Position numbers and translations under genes: made by a program. Shown one piece after another: positions 24,940-46,593 of a stretch of DNA of 60,492 bases. Below the pieces are notes generated by a model, which worked only from the letters and a program-made list of their open reading frames with translations, did no database searches and had not been told where the DNA came from. Origin of the DNA: Candidatus Limnocylindria bacterium. Lineage in GTDB: Bacteria; Chloroflexota; Limnocylindria; QHBO01. How positions within the stretch are numbered: position 1 is the first letter of the stretch; the number at the start of each line of letters is the position of its first letter. The stretch covers positions 1 to 60,492 of the forward strand of contig DASSCI010000015.1 of the NCBI GenBank assembly GCA_035697845.1, in the 5' to 3' direction.

Positions 24940-26913
24940 GTGATCTCAGATACCGCGATTCCCCTGAGGTTCCAGACGGCCGAGGTCGGTGTCGACTGGC
25001 TTCAGTGCAACATCGAGTGCCAGGAAGGCTGCCCGGTCAACACCAATTGCCGGGGCTACCTGATGCTGGCCGCCGAAGGGCGCTTCGAGGAGGGCTACAT
25101 CCTCGCCCGCGACCCGAACCCGGTGGCCGCCATCTGCGGCTACGTGTGCAGCGCGCCGTGCGAGAAGGCCTGCCGCCGCGGCGACATCGACAAGCCGCTC
25201 GCGATCCGCGCCATGAAGCGCTTCCTGGTCGACTGGCACTACGGCAACAACATGCCCGACAACGTCGTGGTGCAGGCGCCGACCGGGCGCAGCGTGGCCG
25301 TCATCGGTGCCGGCCCTGCCGGGCTGGCGGCCGCCAAGGAGCTCGGCAGCTGGGGCCACGAGGTCCACATCTACGAGGCGCTGCCCTCGGGCGGCGGCAC
25401 GACGCTCATCGGCGTCCCGGCCTTCCGCCTCCCGCGCGACGTCATCGAGCTGGACGTGAACTGGGTCGCCAAGCACGGCGTGCAGTTCCACTACAACGTC
25501 GAGATCGGCCGCGACATCACGCTCGAGCAGCTGCGCGCAAAGCACGACGCGGTGGTGGTCGCCACGGGCTGCATGTACCCGGTTGCCATGAACGTCCCGG
25601 GCGAGGAGCTCGACGGCGTCATCTACGGCGTCGACTTCCTGAAGCGCGCCAACCTCGGGCAGCCGCAATGGGTCGGTGAGCACGTCGTCATCATCGGCGG
25701 CGGCTACACCGCCATGGACTCCTCGCGAACCGCGCTTCGGCTGGGAGCCAAGACGAGCACGATCCTCTACCGCCGCGGCCCCGACGAGATGGTGGTCGAC
25801 GAGGAGGAGCAGCACGAGACGCGCTTCGAGGGCGTCCAGTTCGAGTACTTCGCCTCGCCGGTCGAGGTCCTCTCCGACGAGAACGGGCACGTCAGCGGCA
25901 TGAAGTTCGTGCGCACGCGGCTGGGGCCGCCGGACGCGACGGGCCGCCGCAGCGCCGAGCCGATCCCCGGCAGCGAGTTCACGGTTCCGTGCGACATGGT
26001 CATTCCGTGCACCAGCCAGGCATCGGACAACAACGTCCTCGGCGAGTTCGGCGCGAAGCTCAACCGACATGTCGGCGTGACCGATACGCGGACCGTAGTC
26101 GAGGGCGGCTCCCTGTCCGCGTGGCGCACCGAGCCGCTGAACGGCACGACACCGAAGGACGCGCAGGGCAACTCGCTGAACGACCTCAAGTTCGAGTTCA
26201 AGCGCGGCAACGTCGCCATCAACGCCGACACCTTCGGCACCAACCAGGACGGCATCTTCGCCGTCGGTGACTTCGTGACGGGGCCCGCCACGATCATCGA
26301 GGCCGCCGGCCTCGGGCGGCGGGCAGCGCGCAGCGTCGACCGCTGGTTGGCGGGGCTCCGTGGCGAGGAGCTCGAGGAGCTGCCGGTCATCAACCGGGCA
26401 ACCATCACCCAGAGCCTCGACCACGACATGCCGCGCTTCTACGAGGCCACCCGCCGACAGGAGATCCCGATGGCGCCGCCGGAGCTGCGGCGCGACTTCA
26501 CCAGCCTGGTCGAGGTCGGCTACGACACCCGCAGTGCCATCGACGAGGGCAGCCGCTGCCTCCAGTGCAACCACAACATCAACATCGACGGCCCTCGCTG
26601 TATCCTGTGCGGACTCTGCGCCGACGTCTGCCCCGAGGGCGTGATCTACATGATCGACAAGGCGCAGGTCGGCGGCGACGACCCGGAGCAGGAGTTCTTC
26701 CAGTCGTGGCCGCGCGGGATCGCCATGATCATCGACGAGGAGCGTTGCATCCGCTGCAACCTCTGCGTCGAGCGCTGCCCCACCAACTGCATCACCATGG
26801 ACCGGCTCGAGCTCGAGCGGTTCACGCCTGACGGGAAGGTTCTGTTGGAGAGCTACAAGGACAACGTGCTCGGACAGGTCGGCCAGCAGGCCGGCGCGGT
26901 CGTGGACCGATGA
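24940..26913 (+). CDS. GltD-like NAD(P)H-dependent flavoprotein fused to a 2x[4Fe-4S] ferredoxin domain
   Basis: The N-terminal Cys cluster region reads [10 protein letters not shown]...[13 protein letters not shown]. There are two dinucleotide-binding motifs ([14 protein letters not shown]; [12 protein letters not shown]). The C-terminus has [12 protein letters not shown] and [15 protein letters not shown] start. Confidence 0.85.
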
Positions 26914-27647
26914 GCAACGGCAACGGCGGCAACCCCGTCGTGCGCTGGGTGAAGGAGTCGGCCGCCTGGCGCAGCCTGTTCCGCCAGCCGTACCCGTCCA
27001 CCAGCCGCACCCGCGCCCTGGCGGTCATGAACAACGTGTTCCTGCACCTGCACCCGGTGCGGGTCAAGCGTCACGCCGTGCGCTACACGTACACGTTCTG
27101 CCTGGGCGGGATCAGCTTCTTCCTGTTCCTCGTGCTGACCGTGACGGGCCTGTACCTGATGTTCTTCTACGTGCCCTCGATCAGCCGCGCCTACCAGGAC
27201 ATCCAGGCCATCGAGGCATCGGTCGCGTTCGGGTCGCTGGTGCGCAACATGCACCGCTGGGCGGCGCACCTCATGGTCCTCACGGTCTTCCTGCACATGA
27301 TCCGCGTCTTCTATCACGGCGCGTACAAGCCGCCGCGGGAGTTCAACTGGGTCGTCGGCGTGTTGCTGCTGTTCTTCACGCTGGCGCTGAGCTTCACCGG
27401 CTACCTGCTGCCGTGGGACCAGATCGCGTTCTGGGCCATCACCGTCGGCACCCAGATGGCCACCTACGCGCCGCTGCTCAGCAACGAGTCTGCCTTCTTC
27501 ATGCTGGGCGGGATCGAGGTGGGCCAGGGAACGCTGCTGCGCTTCTACGTGGCGCACGTGATCTTCTTCCCGCTCATCGCCGCCATCTTCATGATCGTCC
27601 ACTTCTGGCGGATCCGGAAGGACGGCGGCATCAGTGGCCCGGTGTAA
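26910..27647 (+). CDS. Cytochrome b6-type (split) cytochrome b, N-terminal four-helix subunit
   Basis: ATGA overlap with the flavoprotein gene. His-ligand pairs are present in [18 protein letters not shown] and [22 protein letters not shown]. The FCLGG motif is also present. Confidence 0.9.
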
Positions 27648-27662
27648 GGTGAGGCTGGACCG

Positions 27663-28280
27663 ATGACGATCGAGAAGCGACCGAACGCCACCGCCGACAA
27701 GAACGTCCCGACCCAGGCGCCCGAGCGCGCGCCGATCATTGCGCCCGGTGTGGGACCGAAGCTTCCCGGACCGCCCGGCGTGCCGGGCACCGAGCGCTTC
27801 CGCCTCCTGGCCTACGTCAAGCAGGAGTCGATGGTCCGCGTCGACAAGCGCCCCGACGAGACAGTCCTGACCTGGCCGCACCTGCTGCGCGCCGAGTTCC
27901 TCATGGCCATGCTCATCACCGCCCTGCTGGTGGTGACCAGCGTCTTCATCACCGCGCCGCTGGAGGAGATGGCCAATCCGTCCGTCACACCGCACGTGGC
28001 GAAGGCGCCGTGGTACTTCCTCGGCCTCCAGGAGCTGCTCAGCTACTTCAACCCGACCGTGGCCGGCGTGCTGATCATCCCGGTGTATCTCGGCGGCCTG
28101 CTCATCATCCCGTACGTCGACCGAACGCCCTACAAGGCCGTGCGTGACCGGAAGATGATCTGGATCTTCTTCCTGTGCATCATGGTCGGCGGCCTGATCG
28201 TGACCTTCATCGGCTCCTTCTTCCGCGGCCCGGGCTGGAACTGGGTCTGGCCGTGGGATGGGCTGTACTTCAACCTATGA
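27663..28280 (+). CDS. Cytochrome b C-terminal domain / subunit IV-like protein
   Basis: An SD sequence (AAGGTGAGG) lies upstream. KAPWYFLGLQELL corresponds to the PEWY Qo-site region. Three TM helices. Confidence 0.85.
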   Translation: MTIEKRPNATADKNVPTQAPERAPIIAPGVGPKLPGPPGVPGTERFRLLAYVKQESMVRVDKRPDETVLTWPHLLRAEFLMAMLITALLVVTSVFITAPLEEMANPSVTPHVAKAPWYFLGLQELLSYFNPTVAGVLIIPVYLGGLLIIPYVDRTPYKAVRDRKMIWIFFLCIMVGGLIVTFIGSFFRGPGWNWVWPWDGLYFNL

Positions 28281-28957
28281 CACAGCAGCACGCTTCCTAC
28301 GGCGCGGTGCACGGGCCGCCCACCGGCGAGATCACGCGACGCAGCTTCATGCGCCGCGTGCTGGGCGTGGGGGTCGGCCTCCTCTCCCTCGAGTTCCTGG
28401 GCGGCACGCTCGCCTTCCTGTGGCCGAACCTGACCGAGGGCCTCGGATCGCAGATCACGCTCGGCAGCGCCGACGACATCAACAACCAGGCGCCGGAGTG
28501 GCAGAACGGGCTTCCGTTCGTCTACAACCAGGCGAACCTGTTCTTCGTCAACGTTCCCGCCGCCAAGGCGCGCGTCGCCGAGAACTCGGGTGGCCAGGTG
28601 ACCTCCGACGTGAGCCTGCCGGTGCCGGATCCCGGTGCCGACGTCGATCCGGACATCGCGCCCGAGGATCGCTCGGTCATGGCGCTGTGGCGCAAGTGCC
28701 CGCACCTGGGTTGCCAGGTGCCGCAGCTGTGCGACAGGAGCGAGTGGTTCGAGTGCCTCTGCCACGGCTCGAAGTACACCGTCATCGGCGAGAAGCGCGA
28801 CGGTCCCGCTCCACGCGGCATGGACCGCTTCGAGGTGCTGGTCGAGAACGGCGTCTACATCGTCGATACGCGCCAGGTCATCAGCGGCCCGCCGCCGACG
28901 GTGATGACCTTCGACAAGCGGACCGCCAGCGACATCACCGAGCACTGCGTCGGCTAG
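28277..28957 (+). CDS. Rieske [2Fe-2S] subunit with a Tat-type signal anchor
   Basis: ATGA overlap with subunit IV. Twin-arginine TRRSFMRRVLGVGVG. Cluster boxes CPHLGC and CLCHGS. Confidence 0.9.
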   Translation: MTQQHASYGAVHGPPTGEITRRSFMRRVLGVGVGLLSLEFLGGTLAFLWPNLTEGLGSQITLGSADDINNQAPEWQNGLPFVYNQANLFFVNVPAAKARVAENSGGQVTSDVSLPVPDPGADVDPDIAPEDRSVMALWRKCPHLGCQVPQLCDRSEWFECLCHGSKYTVIGEKRDGPAPRGMDRFEVLVENGVYIVDTRQVISGPPPTVMTFDKRTASDITEHCVG

Positions 28958-28960
28958 GCG

Positions 28961-29752
28961 ATGCGACTCAAGACGCTCGGCGTCGTGCTGATCACGGCCC
29001 TCGCCGCCTTCACCATGCTCTACTGGGTGACCGATGACAGCCGTCGCGAATCGGTCGCGGTCGCGCAGGAGGACGAGCTGCTCGAGTTCGGCGAGGTGAT
29101 CTTCTCCGACAACCCGGCCGAGCCGGCCGCCGCGGGCTGCGCGCAGTGCCACGGCGCGGATGGGACCGGTGGCGAGCCCGGGGCGCAGGTGGTCGGGCCG
29201 AACCTCCACAGCCGCAGCATCTTCGACAAGCTCAAGGTGAACCCGAACTACGTGCACCTGGCCGTCAGCTACGGCGGCGTGGTCGTGTCCGGCAACGTCA
29301 ATTCGCCGATGCCGGCGTGGAGCGCGGAGGTCGGCGGGCCACTGAACGAGCAGCAGATCGAAGCGGTCGTGGCGCTCGTCGAGAGCTGGGCCGCGGAGGC
29401 CGGCGAGCAGCCGGTCGAGGACGTTGAGGACACGGTCGAGGCCGGTGCCGAGATCTACGCCACCGCGGGGTGCGTGACGTGCCACGCCGAGGACCTGTCC
29501 GGGACGACGGCCGGACCCGACATCACCGGCATCGGCTCGGGGCTGGTCGACCTCAGCGGCTTCGCCACCCCGACCGGCGCCGATCAGATGGAGACTGACT
29601 ACGACGCCGATCCGCGCGCCTTCCTGGAGCAGTGGATTCGTGACTCGGCTGGCAACTACGGCGCGTCGGGCATGCCGCCGCACCCGGAGAGCAGCCTGAG
29701 CGAGTCGGCGCTCCAGGCCCTGATCACCTTCCTGCTGGAGGGCGACCATTGA
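28961..29752 (+). CDS. Membrane-anchored dihaem cytochrome c
   Basis: An N-terminal TM helix and two CxxCH motifs (CAQCH, CVTCH). It starts 3 nt after the Rieske stop. Confidence 0.9.
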   Translation: MRLKTLGVVLITALAAFTMLYWVTDDSRRESVAVAQEDELLEFGEVIFSDNPAEPAAAGCAQCHGADGTGGEPGAQVVGPNLHSRSIFDKLKVNPNYVHLAVSYGGVVVSGNVNSPMPAWSAEVGGPLNEQQIEAVVALVESWAAEAGEQPVEDVEDTVEAGAEIYATAGCVTCHAEDLSGTTAGPDITGIGSGLVDLSGFATPTGADQMETDYDADPRAFLEQWIRDSAGNYGASGMPPHPESSLSESALQALITFLLEGDH

Positions 29753-30336
29753 GCACCACCACGTATCCGGTCTATCGGCGGCGCGGCGGGTTCACCCGCC
29801 TGCTCAGCTGGTCGGACGACTTCATGAGCTGGTTCCTGTTCGGCCACGAGACGTGGCTGGTCGCGGTGCTCAAGGCCGTGCCGCTGTTCCTGTTCATGTA
29901 CTTCGCGCTCTTCTACGTGTCGAACTACATCTACTACCTCGTCACGGTGGAGCTGCCGTTCCTGCGCTTCAGCGAGGACGTCGGCTTCCTCATCGCCAAC
30001 GGCGTCGGGATGGGAACGTTCACCGCCATCATCGTGCTGGCGCTGGTGGTCCAGGCCGCGCGTGGCCGGCGTGGCTTCGGCTGGGCAGCGGTACGCATCT
30101 TCGTCATGCTCAACTACCTGCTGACCGTGCTCGTCATCATCCCGATCATGGCGTTCAACCTCGCCGGCGGGTCCTTCTGGCCGCTCCGCATCACGCTCAC
30201 GTCGGTGGCCTTCGGCATGATCGCGGCAGGGATCGGCGCGGCGGCCTGCGTCTACCTCTACTTCGAGTTCCGTCGCATCACTCGGCGGGAGGCCGCGGAG
30301 GCCGCCGCGCGAAGCTCGGAGCTCGCCGCCCGCTGA
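29749..30336 (+). CDS. Polytopic membrane protein of unknown function, coupled to the cytochrome c gene
   Basis: Its TTG start overlaps the cytochrome c stop (TTGA). 195 aa with 4-5 hydrophobic helices. I recognise no motif. Confidence 0.6.
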   Translation: MSTTTYPVYRRRGGFTRLLSWSDDFMSWFLFGHETWLVAVLKAVPLFLFMYFALFYVSNYIYYLVTVELPFLRFSEDVGFLIANGVGMGTFTAIIVLALVVQAARGRRGFGWAAVRIFVMLNYLLTVLVIIPIMAFNLAGGSFWPLRITLTSVAFGMIAAGIGAAACVYLYFEFRRITRREAAEAAARSSELAAR

Positions 30337-30671
30337 CTCGCTCGCTCCTGGCGCACGTCGCCTGGTCTGCCCTCGTCCTGGCGGTCGCCGCCACCGTCAT
30401 CGCCTTCGAGCTCGCGGCGTCGTGCCCGGGTGGCGGACCGCTCGCCTTCGGCGACTGCGTGGCGGTGCGGCCGTTCGTCATCGGCGTGGTGGCGGTTGCC
30501 GCGGTCCTGTACGTCATCGGGCTGTCCGCCGTCCGCTGGTGGACCGTTGGCCTGTTCGAGCGCGGCGTGGCCGACGAACGCGCGGCCCGCGACTGGTATC
30601 TGCTGGCGGCTTCGCTGGGCATGCTGATTGCTCCCCTCCTCGCATTCACCCTCGTGTCGGGCCTTCGCTAG
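30333..30671 (+). CDS. Possible small membrane protein (start ambiguous: CTG 30333 or GTG 30459)
   Basis: The open frame continues after the previous stop (CTGA overlap). It encodes hydrophobic helices (WSALVLAVAATVIAF, FVIGVVAVAAVLYVIGL, LLAASLGMLIAPLLAF). There is no ATG start, so this is low confidence. Confidence 0.35.
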   Translation: MTRSLLAHVAWSALVLAVAATVIAFELAASCPGGGPLAFGDCVAVRPFVIGVVAVAAVLYVIGLSAVRWWTVGLFERGVADERAARDWYLLAASLGMLIAPLLAFTLVSGLR

Positions 30672-30681
30672 CATTGGGGCC

Positions 30682-32130
30682 ATGAGCATCGCCACCCCGA
30701 CCGACCTGCGCGACCGTCTCGACCGCGTCGCGACCATCACCGAGGCTGGCCTCGACGTCCACGACGAGGCCGCGCTGCGCGGCGAGCTGATGGACGAGCT
30801 CGTCTTCGAGGCGGTCTTCAACGCCGATGCGGGAACGCGTGACGCCGCTCGCTGGGTGATCTGGAGCGCATCTCAGGCGCTCGGCTGCGGCTCCGCGTCG
30901 ATCCACGACCTGTATCGCGCCCGGGGCCGCGGCGAATTCGACGTGACGAAGTTCACCGTCCCCGCCATCAACGTGCGGGCCTCGACGTACCTCACCGCGC
31001 GGCAGGCGTTCGCGGCGGCCATGGCGCGCGACGCCGGCACGGTCATCTTCGAGATCGCCAAGAGCGAGATGGCATACACCGACCAGCGTCCGGCCGAGTA
31101 CACGGCGGTCATCCTGGGCGCTGCGCTGCGCGAGGGGTGGCGGACGCCGGTGTTCCTGCAGGGCGACCACTTCCAGTTCAACGCCACGAAGTGGGCATCG
31201 AATCCCGGGGACGAGCTCGAGGGCCTGCGCGACCTGACGCGTGAGGCGGTCGCGGCCGGGTTCCTGAACATCGATATCGACTCCTCGACGCTGGTGGACC
31301 TTTCCTTGCCGACGGTGGCCGAGCAGCAGCAGGTGAACGCCGACAACACCGCGGCGCTCACCCGTCTGATCCGCTCGCTCCAGCCGGCCGGCGTGACGAT
31401 CAGCGTCGGCGGCGAGATCGGCGAGGTTGGCAAGGAGAACTCCACCGAGGAGGAGCTGCGGGCGTACCTGGACGCCTACCTGGTGCTGTGCGGCACGGCG
31501 GAGCCGATCAGCAAGGTCAGCGTCCAGACCGGCACGAGCCACGGCGGCGTGCCGCTGGCGGATGGGTCGATGGCCGAGGTGAACATCGACTTCGACACCT
31601 TGCGCCGCCTCTCGACGGTCGCGCGCGAGTCGTACGGGATGGCCGGCTGCGTGCAGCACGGCGCATCCACCCTCCCGGACGACGCGTTCGACAACTTCCC
31701 GACCAACGGCACGGCCGAGATCCACCTGGCGACCGGCTTCCAGAACATCCTGTACGACGGCGGCGGCCTGCCCGATGACCTGCGCCAAGAAATGATGGAC
31801 TGGTGCCGAACCAACCTTGCCGACGAGCGCAAGGACGGCGAGACCGACGAGCAGTTCCTGTACAAGACGCGCAAGAAGGCACTCGGCCCCTACAAGCGGC
31901 ACCTATGGACGCTTCCGGCCGATGCGGCCGAGGCGATCGCCGCCAACCTGCGCGCCAAGTTCGACCTGCTGTTCGACGAGCTCGGGATCTCTGGCACCCG
32001 CGAGCTGGTCGAGCGATACGTCACCCCGGTCGCGGTACCGAGGCCGCTGCCCGAGGCGCTTGGCGGTCGATCGGCGGCGGCCGTCCGCGCCGGGGCATCG
32101 GTCTTCGAGGACGACGGGTCCGGCGAGTAG
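30682..32130 (+). CDS. Class II fructose-/ketose-bisphosphate aldolase family protein (long form)
   Basis: ATG 30682 gives MSIATPTDL.... Motifs PAINV..., FLQGDHF, NIDIDSS and VQHGAS are consistent with the class II aldolase TIM barrel. Confidence 0.75.
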   Translation: MSIATPTDLRDRLDRVATITEAGLDVHDEAALRGELMDELVFEAVFNADAGTRDAARWVIWSASQALGCGSASIHDLYRARGRGEFDVTKFTVPAINVRASTYLTARQAFAAAMARDAGTVIFEIAKSEMAYTDQRPAEYTAVILGAALREGWRTPVFLQGDHFQFNATKWASNPGDELEGLRDLTREAVAAGFLNIDIDSSTLVDLSLPTVAEQQQVNADNTAALTRLIRSLQPAGVTISVGGEIGEVGKENSTEEELRAYLDAYLVLCGTAEPISKVSVQTGTSHGGVPLADGSMAEVNIDFDTLRRLSTVARESYGMAGCVQHGASTLPDDAFDNFPTNGTAEIHLATGFQNILYDGGGLPDDLRQEMMDWCRTNLADERKDGETDEQFLYKTRKKALGPYKRHLWTLPADAAEAIAANLRAKFDLLFDELGISGTRELVERYVTPVAVPRPLPEALGGRSAAAVRAGASVFEDDGSGE

Positions 32131-37377: not shown

Positions 37378-38172
37378 TCAGGCCTGGGCGGTCCACACCC
37401 ACACGGCGTCGTCCTCGACCTTGACCCGCGGGCGAACCAGGTCCGGCAGCTCGATGGGGTAGGCCTTCGCGTCGCCGCGGTACCCACCGTCCTTCCTCCA
37501 CGCATTTCGGCCGTTGGCGAGCCGCCCGGCCAGGTCGAAGCTGGCCCCGTGGCACGGGCACCTGAAGTCCGCCCAGTCGGGCCGGAAGTGGAGCGTGCAG
37601 CCCATGTGGGTGCAGACCGATGACAGCGCCCGAATGGTGCCCGCATCGTTGACCACGAAGCCGTCGAACGCCGCCGTGCTGAAGCGGACGGCGCTGCCGG
37701 GCGGCACGTCCGAAACGCTGGCAACCTCGGTCCAGAAGCCGTCGCCTGCCACCAGCTGGTCGTCGTCAGCGATCTGCCGCTGTTGCGTGCGGCTCCCGAG
37801 CGACACGCCGATGACGCCCGCGGCCATGCCGGCCGCGGCGCCGAGCCCGGCCTGGAGCACCTGGCGGCGCGACAGGCGCCAGCGGCCCGAGCCGGACGGA
37901 CGTGGCTGCTCGCGGACCGGCGGCGGCCGCTGCACGGAGGCGATGCCCGCGTCGGCCTGGCGCATGCGGAGGCGCAGCTGCTCGACGAAGGCCGGGTCGG
38001 GCGTGGTGGCGGCGCGGACGCTGGCCGCGAGCTCGGCCGCCATGCGTGCCATCTCGGCCTCGTCGCGGTCGCCCACCGCCTCGGGCGAGGGGCGGCCCTC
38101 GCCGAGCAGCGCCTCGAGGTAGGTGTCGAAGCGGGCGGCCGCGTCGTCGACGGGTCGCTCGTCGTCAGCCAT
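37378..38172 (-). CDS. Membrane protein with a cytoplasmic N-terminal domain, Tat-like signal anchor and extracytoplasmic Rieske [2Fe-2S] domain; candidate anti-sigma factor
   Basis: ATG 38172 overlaps the sigma-factor stop by 8 nt. It has RLSRRQVLQAGLGAAAGMAAGVIGV followed by CTHMGC...CPCHGA Rieske boxes. Confidence 0.8.
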   Translation of the reverse strand: MADDERPVDDAAARFDTYLEALLGEGRPSPEAVGDRDEAEMARMAAELAASVRAATTPDPAFVEQLRLRMRQADAGIASVQRPPPVREQPRPSGSGRWRLSRRQVLQAGLGAAAGMAAGVIGVSLGSRTQQRQIADDDQLVAGDGFWTEVASVSDVPPGSAVRFSTAAFDGFVVNDAGTIRALSSVCTHMGCTLHFRPDWADFRCPCHGASFDLAGRLANGRNAWRKDGGYRGDAKAYPIELPDLVRPRVKVEDDAVWVWTAQA

Positions 38173-38677
38173 CGCTCGCCTCTCCCAGCAGGGCCGCACG
38201 CCGCAGCGCGCGGTACTGCAGCACGCGGGCATTGCCGTTGCTGATTCCCATGGCCGTGGCGGTCTCGGCGACGCTCAGGCGTTCCAGGAAGCGGAGCTCG
38301 AGCACGCGCCGATAATGATCCGGCAGCCGCCGTAGCAGTGCCTGGACGCGCACGGCGCTGCGCTCGTCGGGATCCGCGGCCGGCCTGCTGTCGTCAGCCG
38401 GCTCCCAGCCGGGCGCGACATGATCGGTCCCGACCAGCGGCAGCCGGTAGAACGCGCGCCAATAGTCGGCGGTCGCGTTGTGCGCGACCCGATACAGCCA
38501 CGCGGCGATCTGACCGGGTTCGCGGCTCGTGTCGAGCTGCTCGACGGCACGCACGAACACCTGCGCCGTCAGGTCCTCCGCATCTGGATGGTTGCCGACG
38601 CGCGCGTAGATGAACCGATAGATGCCGACGACGTGCTCGTCGTAGACCTTCTCGAACGGACCCGGACCGGTGGACAT
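38165..38677 (-). CDS. ECF-type sigma-70 family RNA polymerase sigma factor
   Basis: Region 2 reads IYRFIYARVGNHPDAEDLTAQVF...WLYRVAHNATADYWR. Region 4 reads YRRVLELRFLERLSVAETATAMGISNGNARVLQYRALRR. Confidence 0.9.
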   Translation of the reverse strand: MSTGPGPFEKVYDEHVVGIYRFIYARVGNHPDAEDLTAQVFVRAVEQLDTSREPGQIAAWLYRVAHNATADYWRAFYRLPLVGTDHVAPGWEPADDSRPAADPDERSAVRVQALLRRLPDHYRRVLELRFLERLSVAETATAMGISNGNARVLQYRALRRAALLGEASDG

Positions 38678-39623: not shown

Positions 39624-40010
39624 TCAGCCCTCCACCGTGATCGTCATGTTCATGTCCGGGTGGATCTTGCAGGTGATGTTGTAGGTCCCCGGCTCGTCGA
39701 AGGTGACCTCGATGTCGCTGCCGCCATCCTCGTCGACGATCGGATCCTCGGCCGCCTCGCCATCAGTGCCCTCGGTGACCGTGTGGTTTGCCGTATCGGT
39801 GAAGGTCACGGTCGTGCCGGCCGGGATGGTCAGATCCGACGGCGAGAAGGCGAACCCGGCGAGCGAGACGGTCTCGCCGCCACCGCTGCCGCCGTCGTCG
39901 GTTGCCGCGCCACCGCCATCGGCCGCCGGGGCCGAGCTCGCGCCGCCGCTACTGCAGGCTGCCAGCAGCAGGACCAGGATCAGGATCGCCAGGGGTCGGG
40001 ATCGGTGCAC
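39624..40010 (-). CDS. Cupredoxin (blue copper) lipoprotein, amicyanin-like ligand loop
   Basis: Lipobox LLLAAC. Upstream His in NHTVTEG. The C-terminal ligand loop is CKIHPDM (C-x2-H-x2-M). Confidence 0.8.
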   Translation of the reverse strand: MHRSRPLAILILVLLLAACSSGGASSAPAADGGGAATDDGGSGGGETVSLAGFAFSPSDLTIPAGTTVTFTDTANHTVTEGTDGEAAEDPIVDEDGGSDIEVTFDEPGTYNITCKIHPDMNMTITVEG

Positions 40011-40027: not shown

Positions 40028-40480
40028 TCAGCCTTCGACCGTGACGGTCAGCTGCATGGATGGGTGGATCTCGCAGGTGATGTCGTACGTGCCCGGCTCG
40101 TCGAACGTGACGCGCACGCTGCGGTTCTGGGCGATCTCGCGATCGACGATCGGGTCATCCACCGCCTGCCCGCCGGTCCCCTCGGTCACGGTGTGCGTGT
40201 AGCTGTCGGCATTGAGGAAGAGGACCGTGGTGCCGGCGGGGATGGTCAGCTCGGACGGGTCGAAGTTCGACGACTCGAGCCGGACGCGGACCTCCTCCGC
40301 GGTCGCCTCCTCGGATGGCTCGGCGGACTCGCTCTCCTCGGCGCTGGGACTGGCCGACGGCGTCGCGGCCTCGGTCGCCGATGGCGTCGGCGGCTCGGTC
40401 GCCGATGGCGAGGCCGCGGGCGAGGCACAGGCGGCCAGCACGAGAGCCAGGATTCCGATGAGCGCGGCGGATCGGTGCAT
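40028..40480 (-). CDS. Cupredoxin (blue copper) lipoprotein, tandem paralogue
   Basis: Lipobox LVLAAC. YTHTVTEG. Ligand loop CEIHPSM. It has a longer Ser/Pro/Glu/Ala-rich linker than its neighbour. Confidence 0.8.
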   Translation of the reverse strand: MHRSAALIGILALVLAACASPAASPSATEPPTPSATEAATPSASPSAEESESAEPSEEATAEEVRVRLESSNFDPSELTIPAGTTVLFLNADSYTHTVTEGTGGQAVDDPIVDREIAQNRSVRVTFDEPGTYDITCEIHPSMQLTVTVEG

Positions 40481-40670: not shown

Positions 40671-41435
40671 ATGCCGCAGACCATCTACGTGTCGCCCCGC
40701 TCCGTCGGGGCTCACGACACCCGACCTCCGGCGGTGGTCACCACCGACCTCGCCCGCCTCTTCGCTGGCAGCCCCGCGCTCGCCGGCGTATCGCTGCAGG
40801 TGACGGCCGGCCGGACGATCGCGCTGCTCGGCCCGAATGGCGCCGGCAAGACGACCCTGATGCGGATCCTCGCCACCGCCATCCGGCCCTCGTACGGGTC
40901 TGCGGCAGTCGACGGCATCGATCTCGGCCGCGACGCGGACCGCGTCCGTGAGCGCGTCGCGTACCTCTCGCACGCCACCGGCCTGTACGACGATCTGACC
41001 GCGCGCGAGAACCTCGCCTTCGCCGCCACCCTGCTGGGCACGCCGGACCGCGATGCCCGCGTGGAGCGGGCGCTGTCGGACGTCGGCCTGCTGGAGCGTT
41101 CGACCGACCGCGTGCGCGACTTCTCGGCCGGCATGCGCAAGCGGCTGGCCCTCGGCCGCATCCTTCTCGGAAGCGCATCGCTCGTCCTGCTGGACGAGCC
41201 GCTCGCCGCGCTCGACGAGGACGGCATGGAGCTGATCGAGGCGCTGCTGGGCGCGTGGAGGGAGGTTGGCGTGACGGTGCTGATCGCCTCGCACGCCACC
41301 GAGCGCCTGGACCCGTTCCTGGATGGGCGCGTCGTGCTGGAGCGTGGCCTGGTGGCCGACGTTTCCGGCGATGGAGTAAGCAGCACGCCACCGACGCTGC
41401 CGGCGACGGCGCGCCCCGCGGTGGTTGCCCGATGA
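40671..41435 (+). CDS. ccmA: Haem exporter ATP-binding protein CcmA
   Basis: Walker A GPNGAGKTT, signature FSAGMRKRL, Walker B LVLLDEPL. It is the first gene of the ccm cluster. The start may be an internal GTG (VVTTDL...). Confidence 0.85.
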   Translation: MPQTIYVSPRSVGAHDTRPPAVVTTDLARLFAGSPALAGVSLQVTAGRTIALLGPNGAGKTTLMRILATAIRPSYGSAAVDGIDLGRDADRVRERVAYLSHATGLYDDLTARENLAFAATLLGTPDRDARVERALSDVGLLERSTDRVRDFSAGMRKRLALGRILLGSASLVLLDEPLAALDEDGMELIEALLGAWREVGVTVLIASHATERLDPFLDGRVVLERGLVADVSGDGVSSTPPTLPATARPAVVAR

Positions 41436-42121
41436 GCGCGCTTCGGCACGAGGCGTCGATGGCGCTCGCCATTGCGCGCAAGGATGCCCTGGCCGAGCTG
41501 CGTGGACGGCACGCCGCCGTGAGCACCCTGTTCTTCGCGGCCGTCGTCCTGCTGCTGTTCGGCTTCGCGCTCGGGCCGGACGCGCAGCTGCTGGCGGACG
41601 CGGCACCGGGCCTCCTGTGGCTGGCGCTCGTCTTTGCGGGTGTGCTGGCAGTCAATCGGCTCCATCTGCTCGAGACTGATGACGGGGCGCTCGAGCAGCT
41701 GGCGCTCTACCCGATCACGCGCCGCGCGATCTACGCCGGCAAGGCCGTGGGCGGCTTCGTCGTGATGCTGGTCCTGGGGCTCATCGTGCTCAGTGCGGTC
41801 GGCATCCTCTTCGCGGTGGACGTGGTGGGTGCGCTGCTCCCGCTTCTCGCCACGGTGGTGCTCGGGGCGGTCGGTATCGCGGCCGTCGGCACCTTCTACG
41901 CCGGCGTCACCGTGCGGCTGCGGGCGCGCGAGGTGATGCTGCCGCTGCTCATGCTGCCGGTCCTGGCGCCACTCCTGCTCGGCGCGGTCAAGGCCACGGC
42001 GGCGGCGCTGTCCGGCGACCCGTTCGGCGAACTCGGCGCCTGGCTGCAGCTGCTGGTGGCGTACGACGTGGTCATGCTCGTCGCCGGTGCCGCCACGTAC
42101 GGCTACCTGCTGGAGGACTGA
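41432..42121 (+). CDS. ccmB: Haem exporter membrane protein CcmB
   Basis: ATGA overlap with ccmA. 229 aa with six TM helices. The position and size fit CcmB. Confidence 0.8.
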   Translation: MSALRHEASMALAIARKDALAELRGRHAAVSTLFFAAVVLLLFGFALGPDAQLLADAAPGLLWLALVFAGVLAVNRLHLLETDDGALEQLALYPITRRAIYAGKAVGGFVVMLVLGLIVLSAVGILFAVDVVGALLPLLATVVLGAVGIAAVGTFYAGVTVRLRAREVMLPLLMLPVLAPLLLGAVKATAAALSGDPFGELGAWLQLLVAYDVVMLVAGAATYGYLLED

Positions 42122-42837
42122 TGAAGACCCGCATCCTGGGCGCGGTGGCGCTCATCGCCGTGGCAGCCATGGTCCTCGTTGCGCTGTTCGTCGTCCCGGC
42201 CGATCTCAATCAGGGCGACGCCCAGCGGATCATGTACCCCCACGTCGCATCCGCGTGGCTGGGCTACCTGTCGTTCGGCGTCACCGCCGCGGCCGGCATC
42301 GGCTGGCTGTGGAAGCGCGACATCCGGTTCGACGCGGTTGCGCTGTCGGCCGCCGAGATCGGCGTGGTCTTCACCGCCTTTGCCATCTGGGGCGGCATGA
42401 TGTGGGGCGACCCGGTGTGGGGCGTCATGTGGCAGTGGGAGGATCCGCGGCTCACCACCACCGCGCTCCTGCTGGCGCTGTACGTCGGCTACCTGCTGCT
42501 GCGCCACCTGACCGATGACCCCGAGCGTCGCGCGACGCGTGCCGCGATCGTCGGCATCGTGGCCGCCGTCGACATCCCGATCGTCCACTTCAGCGTCGAG
42601 TGGTGGCGTGGCCTGCACCAGACGGCGACCATCGGCGCGCCGGATCGCGTGCTGAACCCCGCTGCGCCGATGATCTTCGTCGGCACCCTGCTCGGCATGC
42701 TGGCCGCCTTCACGCTGGCCTGGGTCTACCTGATGATCCGTCGCTACCAGCTCGCCCGCCTGGAGGTCCAGCGCGAGGAGGCGGCACGTGTCGAGCGGCT
42801 CATGAGCCGGCGCGAGACGGCGGAGGTGGCCCGATGA
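42121..42837 (+). CDS. ccmC: Haem exporter protein CcmC
   Basis: The Trp-rich WWD-type loop reads WGGMMWGDPVWGVMWQWEDPRLTTT. Confidence 0.85.
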   Translation: MKTRILGAVALIAVAAMVLVALFVVPADLNQGDAQRIMYPHVASAWLGYLSFGVTAAAGIGWLWKRDIRFDAVALSAAEIGVVFTAFAIWGGMMWGDPVWGVMWQWEDPRLTTTALLLALYVGYLLLRHLTDDPERRATRAAIVGIVAAVDIPIVHFSVEWWRGLHQTATIGAPDRVLNPAAPMIFVGTLLGMLAAFTLAWVYLMIRRYQLARLEVQREEAARVERLMSRRETAEVAR

Positions 42838-42956
42838 CCGACGCGGGCTACGTCATCGCCGCCTACGGCGTGATCATCGGCGGCCTGGCGCTGTACGCCT
42901 TCAGCCTGATGCGCCGCCTTGCCTCGAAGCGCGACCATCACGACGAGGCTCGATGA
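42834..42956 (+). CDS. ccmD: CcmD-like small membrane protein (40 aa)
   Basis: It has ATGA overlaps at both ends. The product is MTDAGYVIAAYGVIIGGLALYAFSLMRRL..., a single TM helix in the canonical ccmD position. Confidence 0.65.
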   Translation: MTDAGYVIAAYGVIIGGLALYAFSLMRRLASKRDHHDEAR

Positions 42957-43417
42957 CGGTCTCCGTCCCGACCGAGCCGACCCTGTCGCCGCCTCGGCGA
43001 CCGTGGGGCATCGTGGTCCTGGTCGCCGTGGTGCTGGTCGTCGTCGCCTATCTGGCCTTCTCGAGCATCGGCAACGCGCTGGTCTACTACCTGACGCCCA
43101 CCGAGCTGCTCGACCGCGGCCAGGCCGCCATCGGCGAGACCGTACGCCTGGGCGGCCAGGTGGCGATGGGCAGCGTCGAGGGGCCGGCGACCGATCTCAC
43201 CTTCGTCCTGACCGATGGGGAGACCGACATCACGGTCCACTCCAACGCGGCCCCGACGCGCTCGTTCCGCGAGGGCGGCGGCGCCGTCGTCGAGGGCCGG
43301 CTGGGCGTGAACGGGGTGTTCGAGGCGAACCGCGTCATCGTCAAGCACGACGAGAACTACCAGGCGCCTGAGCCCGGCACGCAGCCGTCGGACCGCGCCT
43401 TCGATCCGGGGGAATAG
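42953..43417 (+). CDS. ccmE: Cytochrome c-type biogenesis haem chaperone CcmE
   Basis: An N-terminal anchor, an OB-fold region and the haem-binding VKHDENY motif. Confidence 0.9.
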   Translation: MTVSVPTEPTLSPPRRPWGIVVLVAVVLVVVAYLAFSSIGNALVYYLTPTELLDRGQAAIGETVRLGGQVAMGSVEGPATDLTFVLTDGETDITVHSNAAPTRSFREGGGAVVEGRLGVNGVFEANRVIVKHDENYQAPEPGTQPSDRAFDPGE

Positions 43418-43431
43418 CGCTCGTGCGCCGC

Positions 43432-43610
43432 GATCTATCGAGCCTGGACCACCGGAGCGGACGTCCACGCGCGATGTCCGCGACATATCGAGAGGCACGC
43501 AGCATGAGCTGCGCCGATGCGCACGCCTCGTGCACGCGAGGGCTCGGTACATCGCGGAAACGCAGCGCGGGACAGGTCTCGTGTGAAGTCGGCTCGATCT
43601 ATCGAGAGGC
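43432..43610 (+). repeat. Three copies of a (G)A(T/C)(C/A)TATCGAG(A/C) motif in the ccmE-ccmF spacer
   Basis: The copies are GATCTATCGAGCC at 43432, ACATATCGAGAGGC at 43483 and GATCTATCGAGAGGC at 43596. The core TATCGAG sits at 43436, 43486 and 43600. All were read directly from the sequence. Confidence 0.8.
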
Positions 43611-43616
43611 CGCCTG

Positions 43617-45626
43617 GTGATCCCGACCATAGGCCACGCCGCGATCCTCATCGGCCTGGCGCTGACGGTCTACGCCGCCGTCGCGTACGTCCTGTCGGCG
43701 CGCCGCGGGGACCGGCGCGCGGCGACCAGCGCGCGACGCGCCGTCATCGGCTCGTTCGTGGCCGCCCTGGTTGGCTGCCTGGCCATGGTGATCTCGCTGC
43801 TGGCGCACGACTTCAGCGTCCTGTACGTGGCCGAGAACAACGCCACCACCACGCCGCCCTTCATCAGCGCCATCAGCCTGTGGGCGGCGCTCGAGGGATC
43901 GATCCTGTTCTGGACGCTGCTGGCCACCGGCTGGGCATCGCTGGTCCTGTGGCGCAACCGCGACCGGCACCGCGCGCTGATGCCCTGGGTCGGGGCGACG
44001 CTGGCCGGCGTGAACGCCTTCTTCTTCGCCGTCATGACGTGGCCGGGCAACCCGTTCCTGCGGACGTCGCCGGTGGCGGCGGAGGGGATCGGTCCGAACG
44101 CGCTGCTCCAGAACCACCCGTTCATGGCGCTCCACCCGCCGCTGCTGTACCTCGGGTACACCGGTATGGCGGTGCCGTTCGCGTTCGGCGTGGCGGCGCT
44201 GGTCACGAAGCGCCTGGACGAGGAGTGGCTGCGGATCGTGCGACGCTGGACGCTCATCCCATGGATCTTCCTGACGCTCGGCATCACCGCCGGCGCCTGG
44301 TGGAGCTACGAGGTCCTGGGCTGGGGCGGGTACTGGGCGTGGGATCCGGTCGAGAATGCCGCGCTCCTGCCGTGGCTGACCGCGACCGCCTTCGTGCACT
44401 CCTCGATGGTGGCCGAGCGTCGCGGCGGCCTCCGCATCTGGACCGGCGCGCTGGTGGTGGCGACCTTCGTGCTGACCCTGGTCGGCACCTTCCTGACGCG
44501 ATCCGGGATCGTCGCCAGCGTGCATTCGTTCACGCAGTCCGCCATCGGGCCGTGGTTCCTCGGAGGGATCCTGGTCGCGCTGACGGTCGGCCTGGGCCTG
44601 CTCATCTGGCGGCTGCCGGAGCTGATCGGTGGCAGCCGAGCGTCGGGCACGGTCAGCCGTGAGTCCGCCTTCCTGCTGAACAACGTGCTCTTCCTGGGGC
44701 TGACCTTCGCCGTCCTGTTCGGGACGCTGCTGCCCCTCATGGTGGCGGCCACCAGCGGCGACACGATCAGCGTCGGCGCCCCGTGGTTCAACTCGGTCAC
44801 CGTGCCGATCTTCGTCGCCCTCCTCTTCCTGATGGGCGTCGGACCCGCGCTGCCGTGGGGCACGGCGTCCTGGTCGACGCTGCGTCAGCGGTTCAGCCTG
44901 CCGGTCGTCGTGGGGGTCGCGGCGGTCGGCATCGCGCTCGTGTTTGGGCTGCGTCAGACCGGCGCACTCGGCACGCTGGGCCTCGCCGCCTTCGTTGCCA
45001 CGGTCATGGCCGACGAGGTCGTTCGCGGCGCGCGCGCACGTTCCCGTGGGCGCGGGGAGGACCCCGCCACCGCCACCTGGCGCCTCGCCAGCCGGAACCG
45101 CCGTCGGTACGGAGGCTACGCGGTCCATTTCGGCGTGCTCGTCATGGCCGTCGCGGTGGCGATCTCGTCGGGGCTGGCGATCGATCGGACCGTGACCCTG
45201 GCGCCCGGCGAGACCGCGAGCATCGGCCCGTACCGCATTACCCACCAACAGCTGGTGGTCGAGCCACTGGCCGATGACGCCAGGGTCATCGAGACCCGGG
45301 CGGAGCTCGCCTACGACGGCCCGCAGTCGGGCACGCTGGCCACGGCCCTCCGCGACTATCCGAGCTCGGCAACCGCCATCGCCACGCCGGCGGTGCGCAC
45401 GTCGCTGGGCGAGGACCTGTACGTGACGCTGCTCGCCTCCGATCCGGACACCGGCGCGGTCACCCTCCACCTGTTCGTCAACCCGATGGTGGCCTGGATC
45501 TGGATCGGCGGCGCGATCATCGGGGTGGCCTCCGCCTTCGCCGTCTGGCCCGAGCGCCGCCGCCAGCCCTCCGTTGCGCGGGAAGGGGCTCCCGCGCCAG
45601 CGGCCGCACCGGCAGAGGGAGCCTGA
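43617..45626 (+). CDS. ccmF: Cytochrome c-type biogenesis protein CcmF (haem lyase subunit)
   Basis: GTG start. 669 aa, polytopic. WWD motif LGWGGYWAWDPVENAAL. Confidence 0.9.
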   Translation: MIPTIGHAAILIGLALTVYAAVAYVLSARRGDRRAATSARRAVIGSFVAALVGCLAMVISLLAHDFSVLYVAENNATTTPPFISAISLWAALEGSILFWTLLATGWASLVLWRNRDRHRALMPWVGATLAGVNAFFFAVMTWPGNPFLRTSPVAAEGIGPNALLQNHPFMALHPPLLYLGYTGMAVPFAFGVAALVTKRLDEEWLRIVRRWTLIPWIFLTLGITAGAWWSYEVLGWGGYWAWDPVENAALLPWLTATAFVHSSMVAERRGGLRIWTGALVVATFVLTLVGTFLTRSGIVASVHSFTQSAIGPWFLGGILVALTVGLGLLIWRLPELIGGSRASGTVSRESAFLLNNVLFLGLTFAVLFGTLLPLMVAATSGDTISVGAPWFNSVTVPIFVALLFLMGVGPALPWGTASWSTLRQRFSLPVVVGVAAVGIALVFGLRQTGALGTLGLAAFVATVMADEVVRGARARSRGRGEDPATATWRLASRNRRRYGGYAVHFGVLVMAVAVAISSGLAIDRTVTLAPGETASIGPYRITHQQLVVEPLADDARVIETRAELAYDGPQSGTLATALRDYPSSATAIATPAVRTSLGEDLYVTLLASDPDTGAVTLHLFVNPMVAWIWIGGAIIGVASAFAVWPERRRQPSVAREGAPAPAAAPAEGA

Positions 45627-46147
45627 TGCGCTGGCGCTGGCTGCTGATTCCGATCGTCGTGCTTCCGCTCGGCTGGCTCCTGTTCACCGGCTTCAGCCTC
45701 GATCCTCGGGCAGTGGCCTCGCCGCTCATCGGCCAGCCCGCGCCGGCCTGGACGTACACCACGCTCGACGGCGAGGAGCTCAGCAGCGCCGACCTGGCCG
45801 GCCGTCCGTACGTCGTGAACTTCTGGGCGAGCTGGTGCGCGCCATGCGTCGAGGAGCACCCGGTGCTGTCCGCCGCGTGGGACCAGCACTCGGACGACCT
45901 CGCCATGATCGGCGTGCTCTACAGCGACAGTCGCGACAACGCCGAGAGCTTCCTGGACCGATACGGACGAGCCGGCTACCCGACCGTCGTCGATGAGTCG
46001 GGTGCACTGGCGATCGACTTCGGCGTGGTCGGGCCGCCGGAGACGTTCTTCGTCGACGCCGATGGCATCGTCCGCGAAAAGCAGACCGGCCCCTTGACGG
46101 CGGAATCGATGGACCGCCACCTGGCCTCGATTGGAATAGGCCGATGA
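45626..46147 (+). CDS. ccmG: Thiol:disulfide oxidoreductase CcmG/DsbE (TlpA family)
   Basis: TGATG overlap with ccmF. A signal anchor and the active site FWASWCAPC. Confidence 0.9.
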   Translation: MRWRWLLIPIVVLPLGWLLFTGFSLDPRAVASPLIGQPAPAWTYTTLDGEELSSADLAGRPYVVNFWASWCAPCVEEHPVLSAAWDQHSDDLAMIGVLYSDSRDNAESFLDRYGRAGYPTVVDESGALAIDFGVVGPPETFFVDADGIVREKQTGPLTAESMDRHLASIGIGR

Positions 46148-46593
46148 GCCGCTCGCTTCCCGCGGTCGCCATCGGCTGTCTGCTCGCCCTGGTCGCGCTG
46201 TTCGCGCTGCGGCCCGGCTCCCCGCCGACGGATGCGCAACGCGCCGACGCGCTTGCCCATGAGCTGCGCTGTCCCGATTGCGCGGGCCTGTCGGTCGCCG
46301 ACTCGCCAACCAACGCCGCCCAGGAGATGCGACGCCAGATCGTTGAGCTCGTGGCCGGCGGAGCCTCCAATGCCGAGGTGCGACAGCACTTCGTGGACCG
46401 CTACGGCGACTGGATCCGACTGGCTCCCAGCTCGCCGGTCGCGTGGCTCATCCCGTTCGCCGTGTTGATCGCCGGCGTCGGTGCGCTGACCGCCTGGCTG
46501 GTGCGCCGGCCTTCGCCGCCGGCGCCGACTCCGCCCATCTCGGCGGATGAGCGCCGGCGCCTACGTGAAGAGGCGGAGGCGCTGGATGCCTGA
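46144..46593 (+). CDS. ccmH: Cytochrome c-type biogenesis protein CcmH
   Basis: ATGA overlap. LRCPDCAG (LRCxxC motif), followed by a TM helix. Confidence 0.85.
   Translation: MSRSLPAVAIGCLLALVALFALRPGSPPTDAQRADALAHELRCPDCAGLSVADSPTNAAQEMRRQIVELVAGGASNAEVRQHFVDRYGDWIRLAPSSPVAWLIPFAVLIAGVGALTAWLVRRPSPPAPTPPISADERRRLREEAEALDA

Follow-up and report, generated by a model that had tools for sequence, protein, structure and literature searches.

Two Rieske/cytochrome b complexes of the anammox bacterium Kuenenia stuttgartiensis, Kuste4569-4574 and Kustd1480-1485, each contain a putative cytoplasmic nicotinamide adenine dinucleotide (phosphate) (NAD(P)) oxidoreductase (Hauser et al. 2025, PMC12954380). 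The potentials of their Rieske proteins were measured as +303 mV and +335 mV for Kuste4569 and Kustd1480, respectively, and diversion of the low-potential electron of a Rieske/cytochrome b complex to NAD(P)+ is an earlier proposal for anammox bacteria (Hauser et al. 2025, PMC12954380). AlphaFold3 models of the Kuenenia complexes contained a chain of four Fe-S clusters and an extra heme b held between the cytochrome b monomers by His43 (Kuste4571) or His62 (Kustd1481); Arg266/Lys267 of cytochrome b and a reductase Arg lay near the predicted heme propionates, the reductase Arg (near residue 511/550) contacting the predicted extra heme (PMC12954380). In this work, an operon was analyzed in a stretch of 60,492 nucleotides (nt) (the window; contig DASSCI010000015.1 of assembly GCA_035697845.1) from a Candidatus Limnocylindria bacterium, a soil- or freshwater-type member of the phylum Chloroflexota. 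At positions 24940-30671 of the + strand, seven tightly packed genes encode a GltD-like flavoprotein ending in a ferredoxin domain, a split cytochrome b6/subunit IV pair, a Rieske protein, a diheme cytochrome c and two small membrane proteins. The flavoprotein is very probably an integral subunit of a complex of the Kustd1480-85 kind.

A second described group with which the locus can be compared is the APWY clade of split cytochromes b, which lists Chloroflexi among its members. The clade was described as uncharacterized and possibly working in reverse, with Rieske proteins of Mid+ to high potential and an S-F or S-Y signature, and no flavoprotein or ferredoxin partner was mentioned in that paper (Kao and Hunte 2014, PMC4122944). 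Geobacter ExtO/ExtP/ExtQ are in the same clade. As described, the ext operon lacks a flavoprotein gene and encodes multiheme cytochromes together with a porin and a rhodanese (PMC5877670).

A first-pass annotation of the window, made from the sequence alone, had presented the operon as an undescribed respiratory machine. This has to be withdrawn, since the system belongs to a known, uncharacterized anammox-type kind and its cytochrome b falls in the published APWY clade. A literature search returned no description of a flavoprotein-linked complex outside anammox bacteria; key reviews were beyond the reach of that search, and an earlier description is possible.

Linkage of the flavoprotein gene to cytochrome b

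The coding signal was strong across all seven genes of the operon (GC content at third codon positions, GC3, of 0.87-0.98, in a window of approximately 70% GC), and only the start of the seventh gene was ambiguous. The genes were as follows, with sizes in amino acids (aa), transmembrane (TM) segments and Pfam domains:

24940-26913 (+): flavoprotein gene, GTG start, 657 aa
26910-27647 (+): cytochrome b6 gene, 245 aa, 4 TM, Cytochrome_B
27663-28280 (+): subunit IV gene, 205 aa, 3 TM, Cytochrom_B_C
28277-28957 (+): Rieske gene, 226 aa, Rieske
28961-29752 (+): diheme cytochrome c gene, 263 aa, Cytochrom_C twice
29749-30336 (+): membrane protein 1 gene, TTG start, 195 aa, 4 TM
30357 (GTG) or 30333 (CTG) to 30671 (+): membrane protein 2 gene, 104 aa from GTG, 3 TM

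The stop codon of the flavoprotein gene overlapped the start codon of the cytochrome b gene in ATGA (26910-26913), as the first-pass annotation had described. ATGA (28277-28280) and TTGA (29749-29752) overlaps were found at the subunit IV/Rieske and cytochrome c/membrane protein 1 junctions, respectively, and gaps of 15 nt and 3 nt at the cytochrome b/subunit IV and Rieske/cytochrome c junctions, respectively. Membrane proteins 1 and 2 were joined either by a CTGA overlap, with a non-standard CTG start, or across a 20-nt gap. All the features in that annotation were present at the coordinates it gave, as judged from sequence motifs and Pfam, and the profile hidden Markov model scan that it had proposed as a check matched Fer4_20, Pyr_redox_2, two Fer4, Cytochrome_B, Cytochrom_B_C, Rieske and Cytochrom_C. 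Neither a promoter-like nor a terminator-like site was found at the 26.9-kb junction by a scan that is uninformative at 70% GC.

Conservation of the arrangement was examined with a 12-sequence flavoprotein alignment, which was scanned against a single genome for each GTDB species and returned 80 loci from many phyla. The 12 sequences were a subset of 52 diverse flavoproteins, the full alignment of which was too divergent for the scan, and a medoid representative, not the window protein, was placed first in the alignment so that close relatives would not dominate the results. Neighbors were detected by tblastn with the window proteins in the 72 loci that had enough flank to be evaluated. In 63 of these 72 loci, the flavoprotein gene had same-strand cytochrome b6 and subunit IV genes as its neighbors, and most of the 63 also yielded a Rieske gene. 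The linked loci spanned Chloroflexota, Acidobacteriota, Planctomycetota, Bacteroidota and Desulfobacterota, so that the module is widespread and not peculiar to this organism. The gene order was flavoprotein-b-IV-Rieske(-c) in Chloroflexota and in a Syntrophaceae genome, flavoprotein-Rieske-b-IV in Acidobacteriota and Bacteroidota, and Rieske-b-flavoprotein-IV in Planctomycetota. Moreover, the 4-nt NTGA overlap of the flavoprotein stop with the cytochrome b start was present in 28 of 30 Chloroflexota loci, even at approximately 52% protein identity. The pairwise distances of flavoprotein and cytochrome b correlated with r = 0.97 (Mantel p approximately 0.001, 63 taxa), a value to which shared species history contributes.

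These findings show that the arrangement of the flavoprotein with cytochrome b is far beyond chance. The survival of the linkage through rearrangement of the gene order points to selection on co-expression, and the synteny, the conserved overlap and the distance correlation together identify the flavoprotein as a dedicated partner and not a chance neighbor, in agreement with what the overlap alone had first suggested. The gene-neighborhood analysis that had been proposed as a check of that suggestion is the one reported here.

The nine loci without linkage were paralogues or oddities. Two Thermomicrobiales paralogues (loci L029:5646-7814 and L033:9752-11845) carried an N-terminal rubredoxin-like CxxC...CxxC domain and had no cytochrome b neighbor, an Anaerolineae gene adjoined IorAB-like genes, and the matches in Eisenbacteria and Desulfobacterales were truncated. 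In a Limnocylindrales locus (L028:937-11633), the flavoprotein orthologue was followed by an 870-aa fusion of a NuoG-N-like 2Fe-2S domain, a GltD-like Fe-S/FAD (flavin adenine dinucleotide) module and a NuoI-like ferredoxin, and then by NuoJ/L/M/N-like genes, with no cytochrome b. The gene set may encode an enzyme resembling complex I whose input head is of the GltD type; alternatively, it may be an assembly chimera.

The flavoprotein and its ferredoxin domain

The N-terminal part of the window flavoprotein matched the GltD/NfnB-like Fer4_20 domain for two [4Fe-4S] clusters (residues 21-103), with cysteines at positions 23/27/31/37 and 66/70/74/78. Rossmann folds for FAD and NAD(P) followed at residues 118 to approximately 470 (Pyr_redox_2), and the second Rossmann strand was followed by a YRR motif, which we take to be typical of NADPH-binding GltD/NfnB relatives. 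A ferredoxin with two [4Fe-4S] motifs occupied the C-terminal residues 547-622 (window 26578-26805, + strand; Fer4/Fer4_7). Just ahead of it lay a CxxC pair, C540/C543, in RCLQC (window 26557-26568), which was invariant in 52 of 52 aligned fused flavoproteins. An insertion of approximately 45 aa in the flavin domain (residues ~370-415, window about 26047-26184) was missing from all more distant aligned homologues, including a Limnocylindrales protein of 58% identity (P0121). No signal peptide or TM segment was predicted in the flavoprotein sequence.

Sequence matches in the PDB included NfnA (9n5u, 1.8e-99), NfnB (4ylf_B, 1.4e-84) and GltD (2vdc_G, 3.9e-67). The N-terminal 370 residues matched NfnA/NfnB, StnC-like chains and GltD at 1e-67 to 1e-99, and the C-terminal 80 residues matched di-cluster ferredoxins of the FwdF/NuoI type. 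More than 4300 homologues were found, of which the top 120 were 83-92% identical and the named ones came from Limnocylindria/Chloroflexota. When the best 150 clusters from a search of 1.84 billion cluster representatives were examined, 51 shared the architecture of 540-740 aa with a GltD-like part and two C-terminal CxxCxxCxxxCP motifs.

The window flavoprotein has the same N-terminal two-cluster domain (Fer4_20) and the same FAD and NADPH Rossmann folds as NfnB and GltD. In contrast to them, it adds the C-terminal di-cluster ferredoxin and the invariant CxxC, its genomic partner is a membrane cytochrome b, and it scored below every NCBIfam equivalog cut-off (for example 248.5 vs 483 for TIGR01318), the best model being PRK12771 at 416 bits, also under its cut-off. 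No GltB or NfnA partner gene was found in the annotated part of the window (13-50 kb and a few outlying open reading frames (ORFs)). A function as the small subunit of glutamate synthase or as NfnB was rejected in view of the partner gene missing from that part of the window, the extra ferredoxin, the sub-cut-off scores and the linkage to cytochrome b.

A scan of metagenomes with an alignment of APWY-type cytochromes b returned 80 loci, which were classified by the neighbor of the cytochrome b gene. A full flavoprotein was adjacent in 23 loci; a small ferredoxin only, directly upstream, was present in 14 secure and 11 probable loci; neither was found in 5 secure and 7 probable loci; and 20 loci were too short to judge. 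The stand-alone ferredoxin (115-170 aa; Fer4_7) had two CxxCxxCxxxCP motifs with the signature CxRCxxCxxRCPT and was 35% identical to residues ~546-623 of the window flavoprotein (E 2e-15). Its loci include L097, L099, L107 (5337-5846), L122, L123 (5174-5524), L125, L128, L131 and L137, and the three sequences inspected (L099, L107, L123) did not have the C540/C543 CxxC. On the evidence of these neighborhoods, the di-cluster ferredoxin is a recurrent partner of this cytochrome b clade at the cytoplasmic (N) side, onto which the GltD-like NAD(P) module has been fused. Since the ferredoxin alone precedes cytochrome b elsewhere, the C-terminal ferredoxin domain of the flavoprotein is likely to be the adaptor that docks on cytochrome b, and this agrees with the anammox model, in which a reductase Arg lies at the extra heme. 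In L107 and L123, a small membrane protein of approximately 145-150 aa was encoded ahead of the stand-alone ferredoxin.

The flavoprotein could also be a soluble NADPH:ferredoxin-type or GltD/NfnB-like enzyme that is merely co-transcribed with the membrane genes, for example for redox balance, and makes no physical contact with their products. Its close kinship to the soluble NfnB and GltD would fit such an enzyme, as would the paralogues that have no membrane partner. However, the genes are adjacent in five phyla and in three independent gene orders, the translational overlap is conserved as well, the ferredoxin domain stays beside cytochrome b in other lineages even when it is alone, and the annotated part of the window offered no GltB/NfnA to act with. 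We regard a soluble, unattached enzyme as highly improbable.

The membrane core and its anammox relatives

The bis-His ligands of the window cytochrome b were His115/His216 and His129/His231; His115/129/216/231 aligned with His86/100/187/202 of the solved b6 chains (1q90_B, 6rqf_I and 1vf5_A; best E 3.7e-49, next 5.4e-49). Cys64, in FCLGG, aligned with b6 Cys35, the covalent ligand of heme cn, and the first-pass reading of this residue as standing at the heme ci-binding position was therefore correct. The Qo-region motif APWY that had been noticed in subunit IV was located at residues 115-118, where it replaces PEWY. Subunit IV had a Pro-rich N-terminal extension, and its PDB matches were to the C-terminal half of cytochrome b and to PetD. 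The N-terminus of cytochrome b was approximately 30 residues longer than that of b6 and contained FLHLHP (His46, His48), and Arg236-Lys237 was present at the C-terminal end.

The Rieske protein had a twin-arginine translocation (Tat) motif (TRRSFM), one TM anchor and the motifs CPHLGC and CLCHGSKY. The second and fourth residues after CxCH give the signature S-Y, which is read as high potential, >260 mV, following a rule that Kao and Hunte (2014, PMC4122944) quote. The cytochrome c had the heme motifs CAQCH and CVTCH, an N-terminal hydrophobic segment (membrane anchor) and a weak QcrC-like match in NCBIfam. Membrane proteins 1 and 2 had no Pfam or NCBIfam match. The GC3 of membrane protein 1 (0.94) supports coding, and conservation of this protein (50-55% identity) was limited to the closest relatives (L001, L058, L062, L070), in which membrane protein 2 gave tblastn matches of 45-64%.

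Compared with cytochrome b6f, the window proteins share the four His ligands, the Cys35-equivalent Cys64 and the 4+3 TM split of b6 and subunit IV, and the input of electrons at heme cn by ferredoxin-NADP+ reductase (FNR)/ferredoxin is a conceptual parallel. In contrast, the window has APWY and not PEWY, a diheme c instead of cytochrome f, and a cytochrome b N-terminus that is 30 residues longer and carries His46; moreover, the gene for the NAD(P)-binding partner lies within the operon, and its product resembles GltD and not FNR. All scores against NCBIfam b6f models were below cut-off (PRK03735, 214.8 vs 325; cytb6_f_IV, 17.1 vs 127; PetC, 40.2 vs 250).

With its split b6/subunit IV, APWY, CxGG and a high-potential Rieske signature (S-Y), the window cytochrome b is assigned to the published APWY clade. 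It scored 298.7 bits against the NCBIfam equivalog model for ExtP (NF040969; cut-off 290), which was the best model for all APWY-type cytochromes b tested (257-304 bits). Automatic annotation would mislabel it as "selenite/tellurite reduction operon b-type cytochrome ExtP". No extHIJKLMNOPQS context (porin, rhodanese, multiheme cytochromes) was found in the operon or its annotated flanks, and ExtP/selenite reduction was rejected as a functional label despite the passing score.

A direct comparison with anammox bacteria was made through a locus of Candidatus Brocadia sapporoensis (L052), which is of the Kustd1480-85 type. Its Rieske protein contains CPCHGSGF, with the same S/F pair as reported for Kustd1480, and its 275-aa cytochrome b has FMH62LHP and R266K267 at the published Kustd1481 numbers. 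The locus further encodes a 568-aa flavoprotein, a 5-TM subunit IV (288 aa) with APWY and a 946-aa multiheme c. By tblastn, the identities to the window proteins were 39%, 57%, 42% and 43% for the flavoprotein, cytochrome b, subunit IV and the Rieske core, respectively, and His46, Cys64 and Arg236-Lys237 of the window aligned with His62, the CMGG cysteine and Arg266-Lys267 of Brocadia. These identities, together with the equivalent His46 and Arg236-Lys237, indicate that the window operon is homologous, and not merely analogous, to the anammox system. The comparison with anammox planctomycetes drawn in the first-pass annotation was to this extent well founded (39% and 57% identity to the Brocadia Kustd1480-85-type cluster for flavoprotein and cytochrome b). 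In the Brocadia locus, a gene for a 657-aa protein (L052:11741-13714), DUF262-like by eye, lies between the flavoprotein and subunit IV genes.

The window and anammox systems have in common the Rieske protein, a CxGG b6-type cytochrome b with the N-terminal His and the C-terminal Arg-Lys, an APWY subunit IV and, inside the cluster, a GltD-like FAD/NAD(P) subunit with four Fe-S motifs. They differ in the cytochrome c, which is diheme in the window and hexa- or octaheme in anammox bacteria (with an HAO-like protein in Kuste4574), in subunit IV (3 TM vs 5 TM) and in the two small membrane proteins that the window adds. The window flavoprotein gene is the first of its operon and translationally coupled to cytochrome b, and its product is approximately 90 residues longer, including the 45-aa insertion. 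The host of the window operon is a non-anammox member of the Chloroflexota.

Among flavoprotein-linked cytochromes b with N-terminal coverage, the N-terminal His (N-x-(F/W)-L-H; His46 in the window) was present in 64 of 64 and the heme cn cysteine in 35 of 64, the latter from Chloroflexota, Planctomycetota and Syntrophaceae. The Acidobacteriota/Bacteroidota loci without the cysteine (L006, L040, L042, L043, L046, L060, L072 and others; L074, L079) kept the flavoprotein and the N-terminal His. APWY was almost universal in flavoprotein-linked loci, and the Rieske signature was S-Y in Limnocylindria and S-F in Acidobacteriota and Planctomycetota. Several Acidobacteriaceae had a single fused protein of approximately 428 aa in place of separate cytochrome b and subunit IV.

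Direction of electron flow

We infer the physical association of the subunits, the extra heme and the direction of electron flow from these sequence relationships. The seven genes would encode a single membrane complex, an APWY-clade Rieske/cytochrome b6 enzyme, with the Tat-Rieske and the anchored cytochrome c predicted outside and the flavoprotein predicted inside. At the outer (P) face, the Tat-exported high-potential Rieske protein would pass electrons to the membrane-anchored diheme c. Within the membrane, hemes bp and bn and probably a covalent heme cn (Cys64) would be held by the split cytochrome b6/subunit IV, and an extra heme b is possibly held by His46 of both cytochrome b monomers. 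At the N face, the flavoprotein would dock through its C-terminal di-cluster ferredoxin, and the N-side hemes would be wired to FAD/NAD(P)(H) via four [4Fe-4S] clusters. Menaquinol would be oxidized at the quinol oxidation (Qo) site, from which one electron would move uphill in potential to the Rieske protein and cytochrome c, and the other, strongly reducing electron would cross the membrane and reduce NAD(P)+ and would not return to quinone. The proposed path is NAD(P)(H)-FAD-two N-terminal [4Fe-4S]-two C-terminal [4Fe-4S]-(heme b on His46?)-heme cn/bn-bp-Qo-Rieske-diheme c.

Chloroflexota use menaquinone. The published energetics place menaquinol at approximately -75 mV, the b hemes near -350/-320 mV and NAD(P)+ at -320 mV (Hauser et al. 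2025, PMC12954380). With a Rieske protein above +260 mV and menaquinol at approximately -75 mV, the Qo semiquinone would be reducing enough for the b hemes and NAD(P)+, which favors bifurcation of quinol oxidation to cytochrome c and NAD(P)+. The measured potentials of the Kuenenia Rieske proteins (+303/+335 mV) fit NAD(P)+ reduction from menaquinol. Taken as a whole, the statement that one APWY-clade complex bifurcates menaquinol electrons to cytochrome c and NAD(P)+ is the reading to which we incline, with modest confidence; for the NAD(P)+-reducing direction by itself, the case appears evenly balanced. An aerobic chain is the probable destination of the high-potential branch, and nitrite reduction is unlikely as the exergonic branch because the host is a non-anammox member of the Chloroflexota. 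In L008 (13950-15068) and other Limnocylindria loci of approximately 52% identity, the c subunit is a monoheme cytochrome c-cupredoxin fusion.

The same cofactors could carry electrons the other way, with the flavoprotein as an NAD(P)H input module feeding the Fe-S chain, the N-side hemes and then either the quinone reduction (Qi) site, as an NAD(P)H:menaquinone reductase, or cytochrome c. A similar route, from ferredoxin/FNR to heme cn, has been discussed for cyclic flow in cytochrome b6f, and NAD(P)H input is an option discussed by Hauser et al. (2025, PMC12954380). In principle, the chain of cofactors can run either way, the heme cn Cys64 and the nearby Arg-Lys are kept as in b6f, and the L028 orthologue beside a complex-I-like arm with a GltD-like fusion suggests that such proteins can serve as NAD(P)H dehydrogenase heads. 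On the other hand, approximately 250 mV would be dissipated without coupling, as argued for Kuenenia (Hauser et al. 2025, PMC12954380), this role would not call for a Rieske protein of high potential (S-Y/S-F) in phyla that use menaquinone, and Acidobacteriota/Bacteroidota keep the flavoprotein without the heme cn cysteine. NAD(P)H input is the less likely direction on this balance, but it is the main rival of the preferred reading.

Confurcation was also weighed, in which electrons from a weak periplasmic donor at the level of cytochrome c and from NAD(P)H would converge at Qo and reduce menaquinone. APWY complexes were argued to run in reverse from the p-cresol methylhydroxylase cluster of Geobacter metallireducens (Kao and Hunte 2014, PMC4122944). 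However, that reverse operation is itself a proposal, no dehydrogenase for a high-potential donor was encoded in or beside the operon, and an ordinary diheme c, or the c-cupredoxin fusion of the relatives, fits delivery to an aerobic chain. Confurcation appears very unlikely.

Several points weigh against the preferred reading, bifurcation of menaquinol electrons by an integral flavoprotein complex. The flavoprotein-linked complexes, the anammox ones included, are still biochemically and structurally uncharacterized; the extra heme b is an AlphaFold3 prediction only (Hauser et al. 2025); and the Rieske potential of the window protein was deduced from a two-residue signature. The AlphaFold2 model of the flavoprotein had a mean predicted local distance difference test score (pLDDT) of 42.6, from a 27-sequence alignment whose members were all at least 83% identical. 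The use of menaquinone by this organism was assumed from its membership of the Chloroflexota. Among the paralogues of the flavoprotein, some (Thermomicrobiales, Anaerolineae, L028) evidently are soluble or have partners of another kind. The His46 equivalent is also present in L112, L155 and L161, which have no adjacent flavoprotein or ferredoxin; it is therefore a feature of the clade and not specific proof of coupling, and it was discarded as a marker of flavoprotein coupling. The heme cn cysteine is replaced by Tyr in approximately 27 of the flavoprotein-linked cytochromes b (Acidobacteriota and one Bacteroidota) and by Gly in 2, and its loss in Acidobacteriota/Bacteroidota means that the N-side electron path cannot be uniform.

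If bifurcation to NAD(P)+ is true, respiration could draw reductant at the NADPH level straight from the quinone pool and would not need complex I to run in reverse, an advantage whenever electrons are delivered at the quinone level. The same flavoprotein-linked core is found in Limnocylindria, many Acidobacteriota and some Bacteroidota, with a simpler cytochrome c branch than in anammox bacteria, and some carrier genera have cultured members, so that the hypothesis of NAD(P)H generation can be approached in easier organisms; Terracidiphilus and Bryobacteraceae are among the taxa seen. More tentatively, and with rather more doubt than belief, these loci may represent a large overlooked class of menaquinol-oxidizing complexes that push the low-potential Qo electron onto a cytoplasmic Fe-S adaptor and do not run a Q cycle. 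The hosts of such a class may be abundant soil and freshwater Chloroflexota, Acidobacteriota, Bacteroidota, Planctomycetota and Desulfobacterota, and the electron may go to NAD(P)+ via the fused flavoprotein and to another acceptor via the stand-alone ferredoxin. The value of the comparison lies in the broad family, the candidate adaptor domain and the clade-wide N-terminal His as a candidate ligand more than in one operon.

A penicillin-binding protein gene lies upstream of the operon and is separated from the flavoprotein gene by 112 nt. On the downstream side, a class-II-aldolase-like gene (30682-32130, +; 482 aa from ATG 30682) begins 10 nt past the last operon stop; its placement is the same in L001, L058, L062 and L070, the closest relatives, and it is possibly co-transcribed. 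Two genes for plastocyanin/amicyanin-like cupredoxins (39624-40010 and 40028-40480, both -) encode candidate electron acceptors of the complex. They are followed by a complete System I cytochrome c maturation cluster (40671-47443, +; ccmA, B, C, E, F, a CcmG-like thioredoxin and a CcmH/NrfF-like gene), and the cupredoxin and ccm genes sit 9-17 kb downstream of the operon. A further gene for a 284-aa protein with a C-terminal Rieske domain (37378-38232, -) slightly overlaps that of an extracytoplasmic function (ECF) sigma factor (38165-38677, -), and its product may be a redox-sensing anti-sigma factor.

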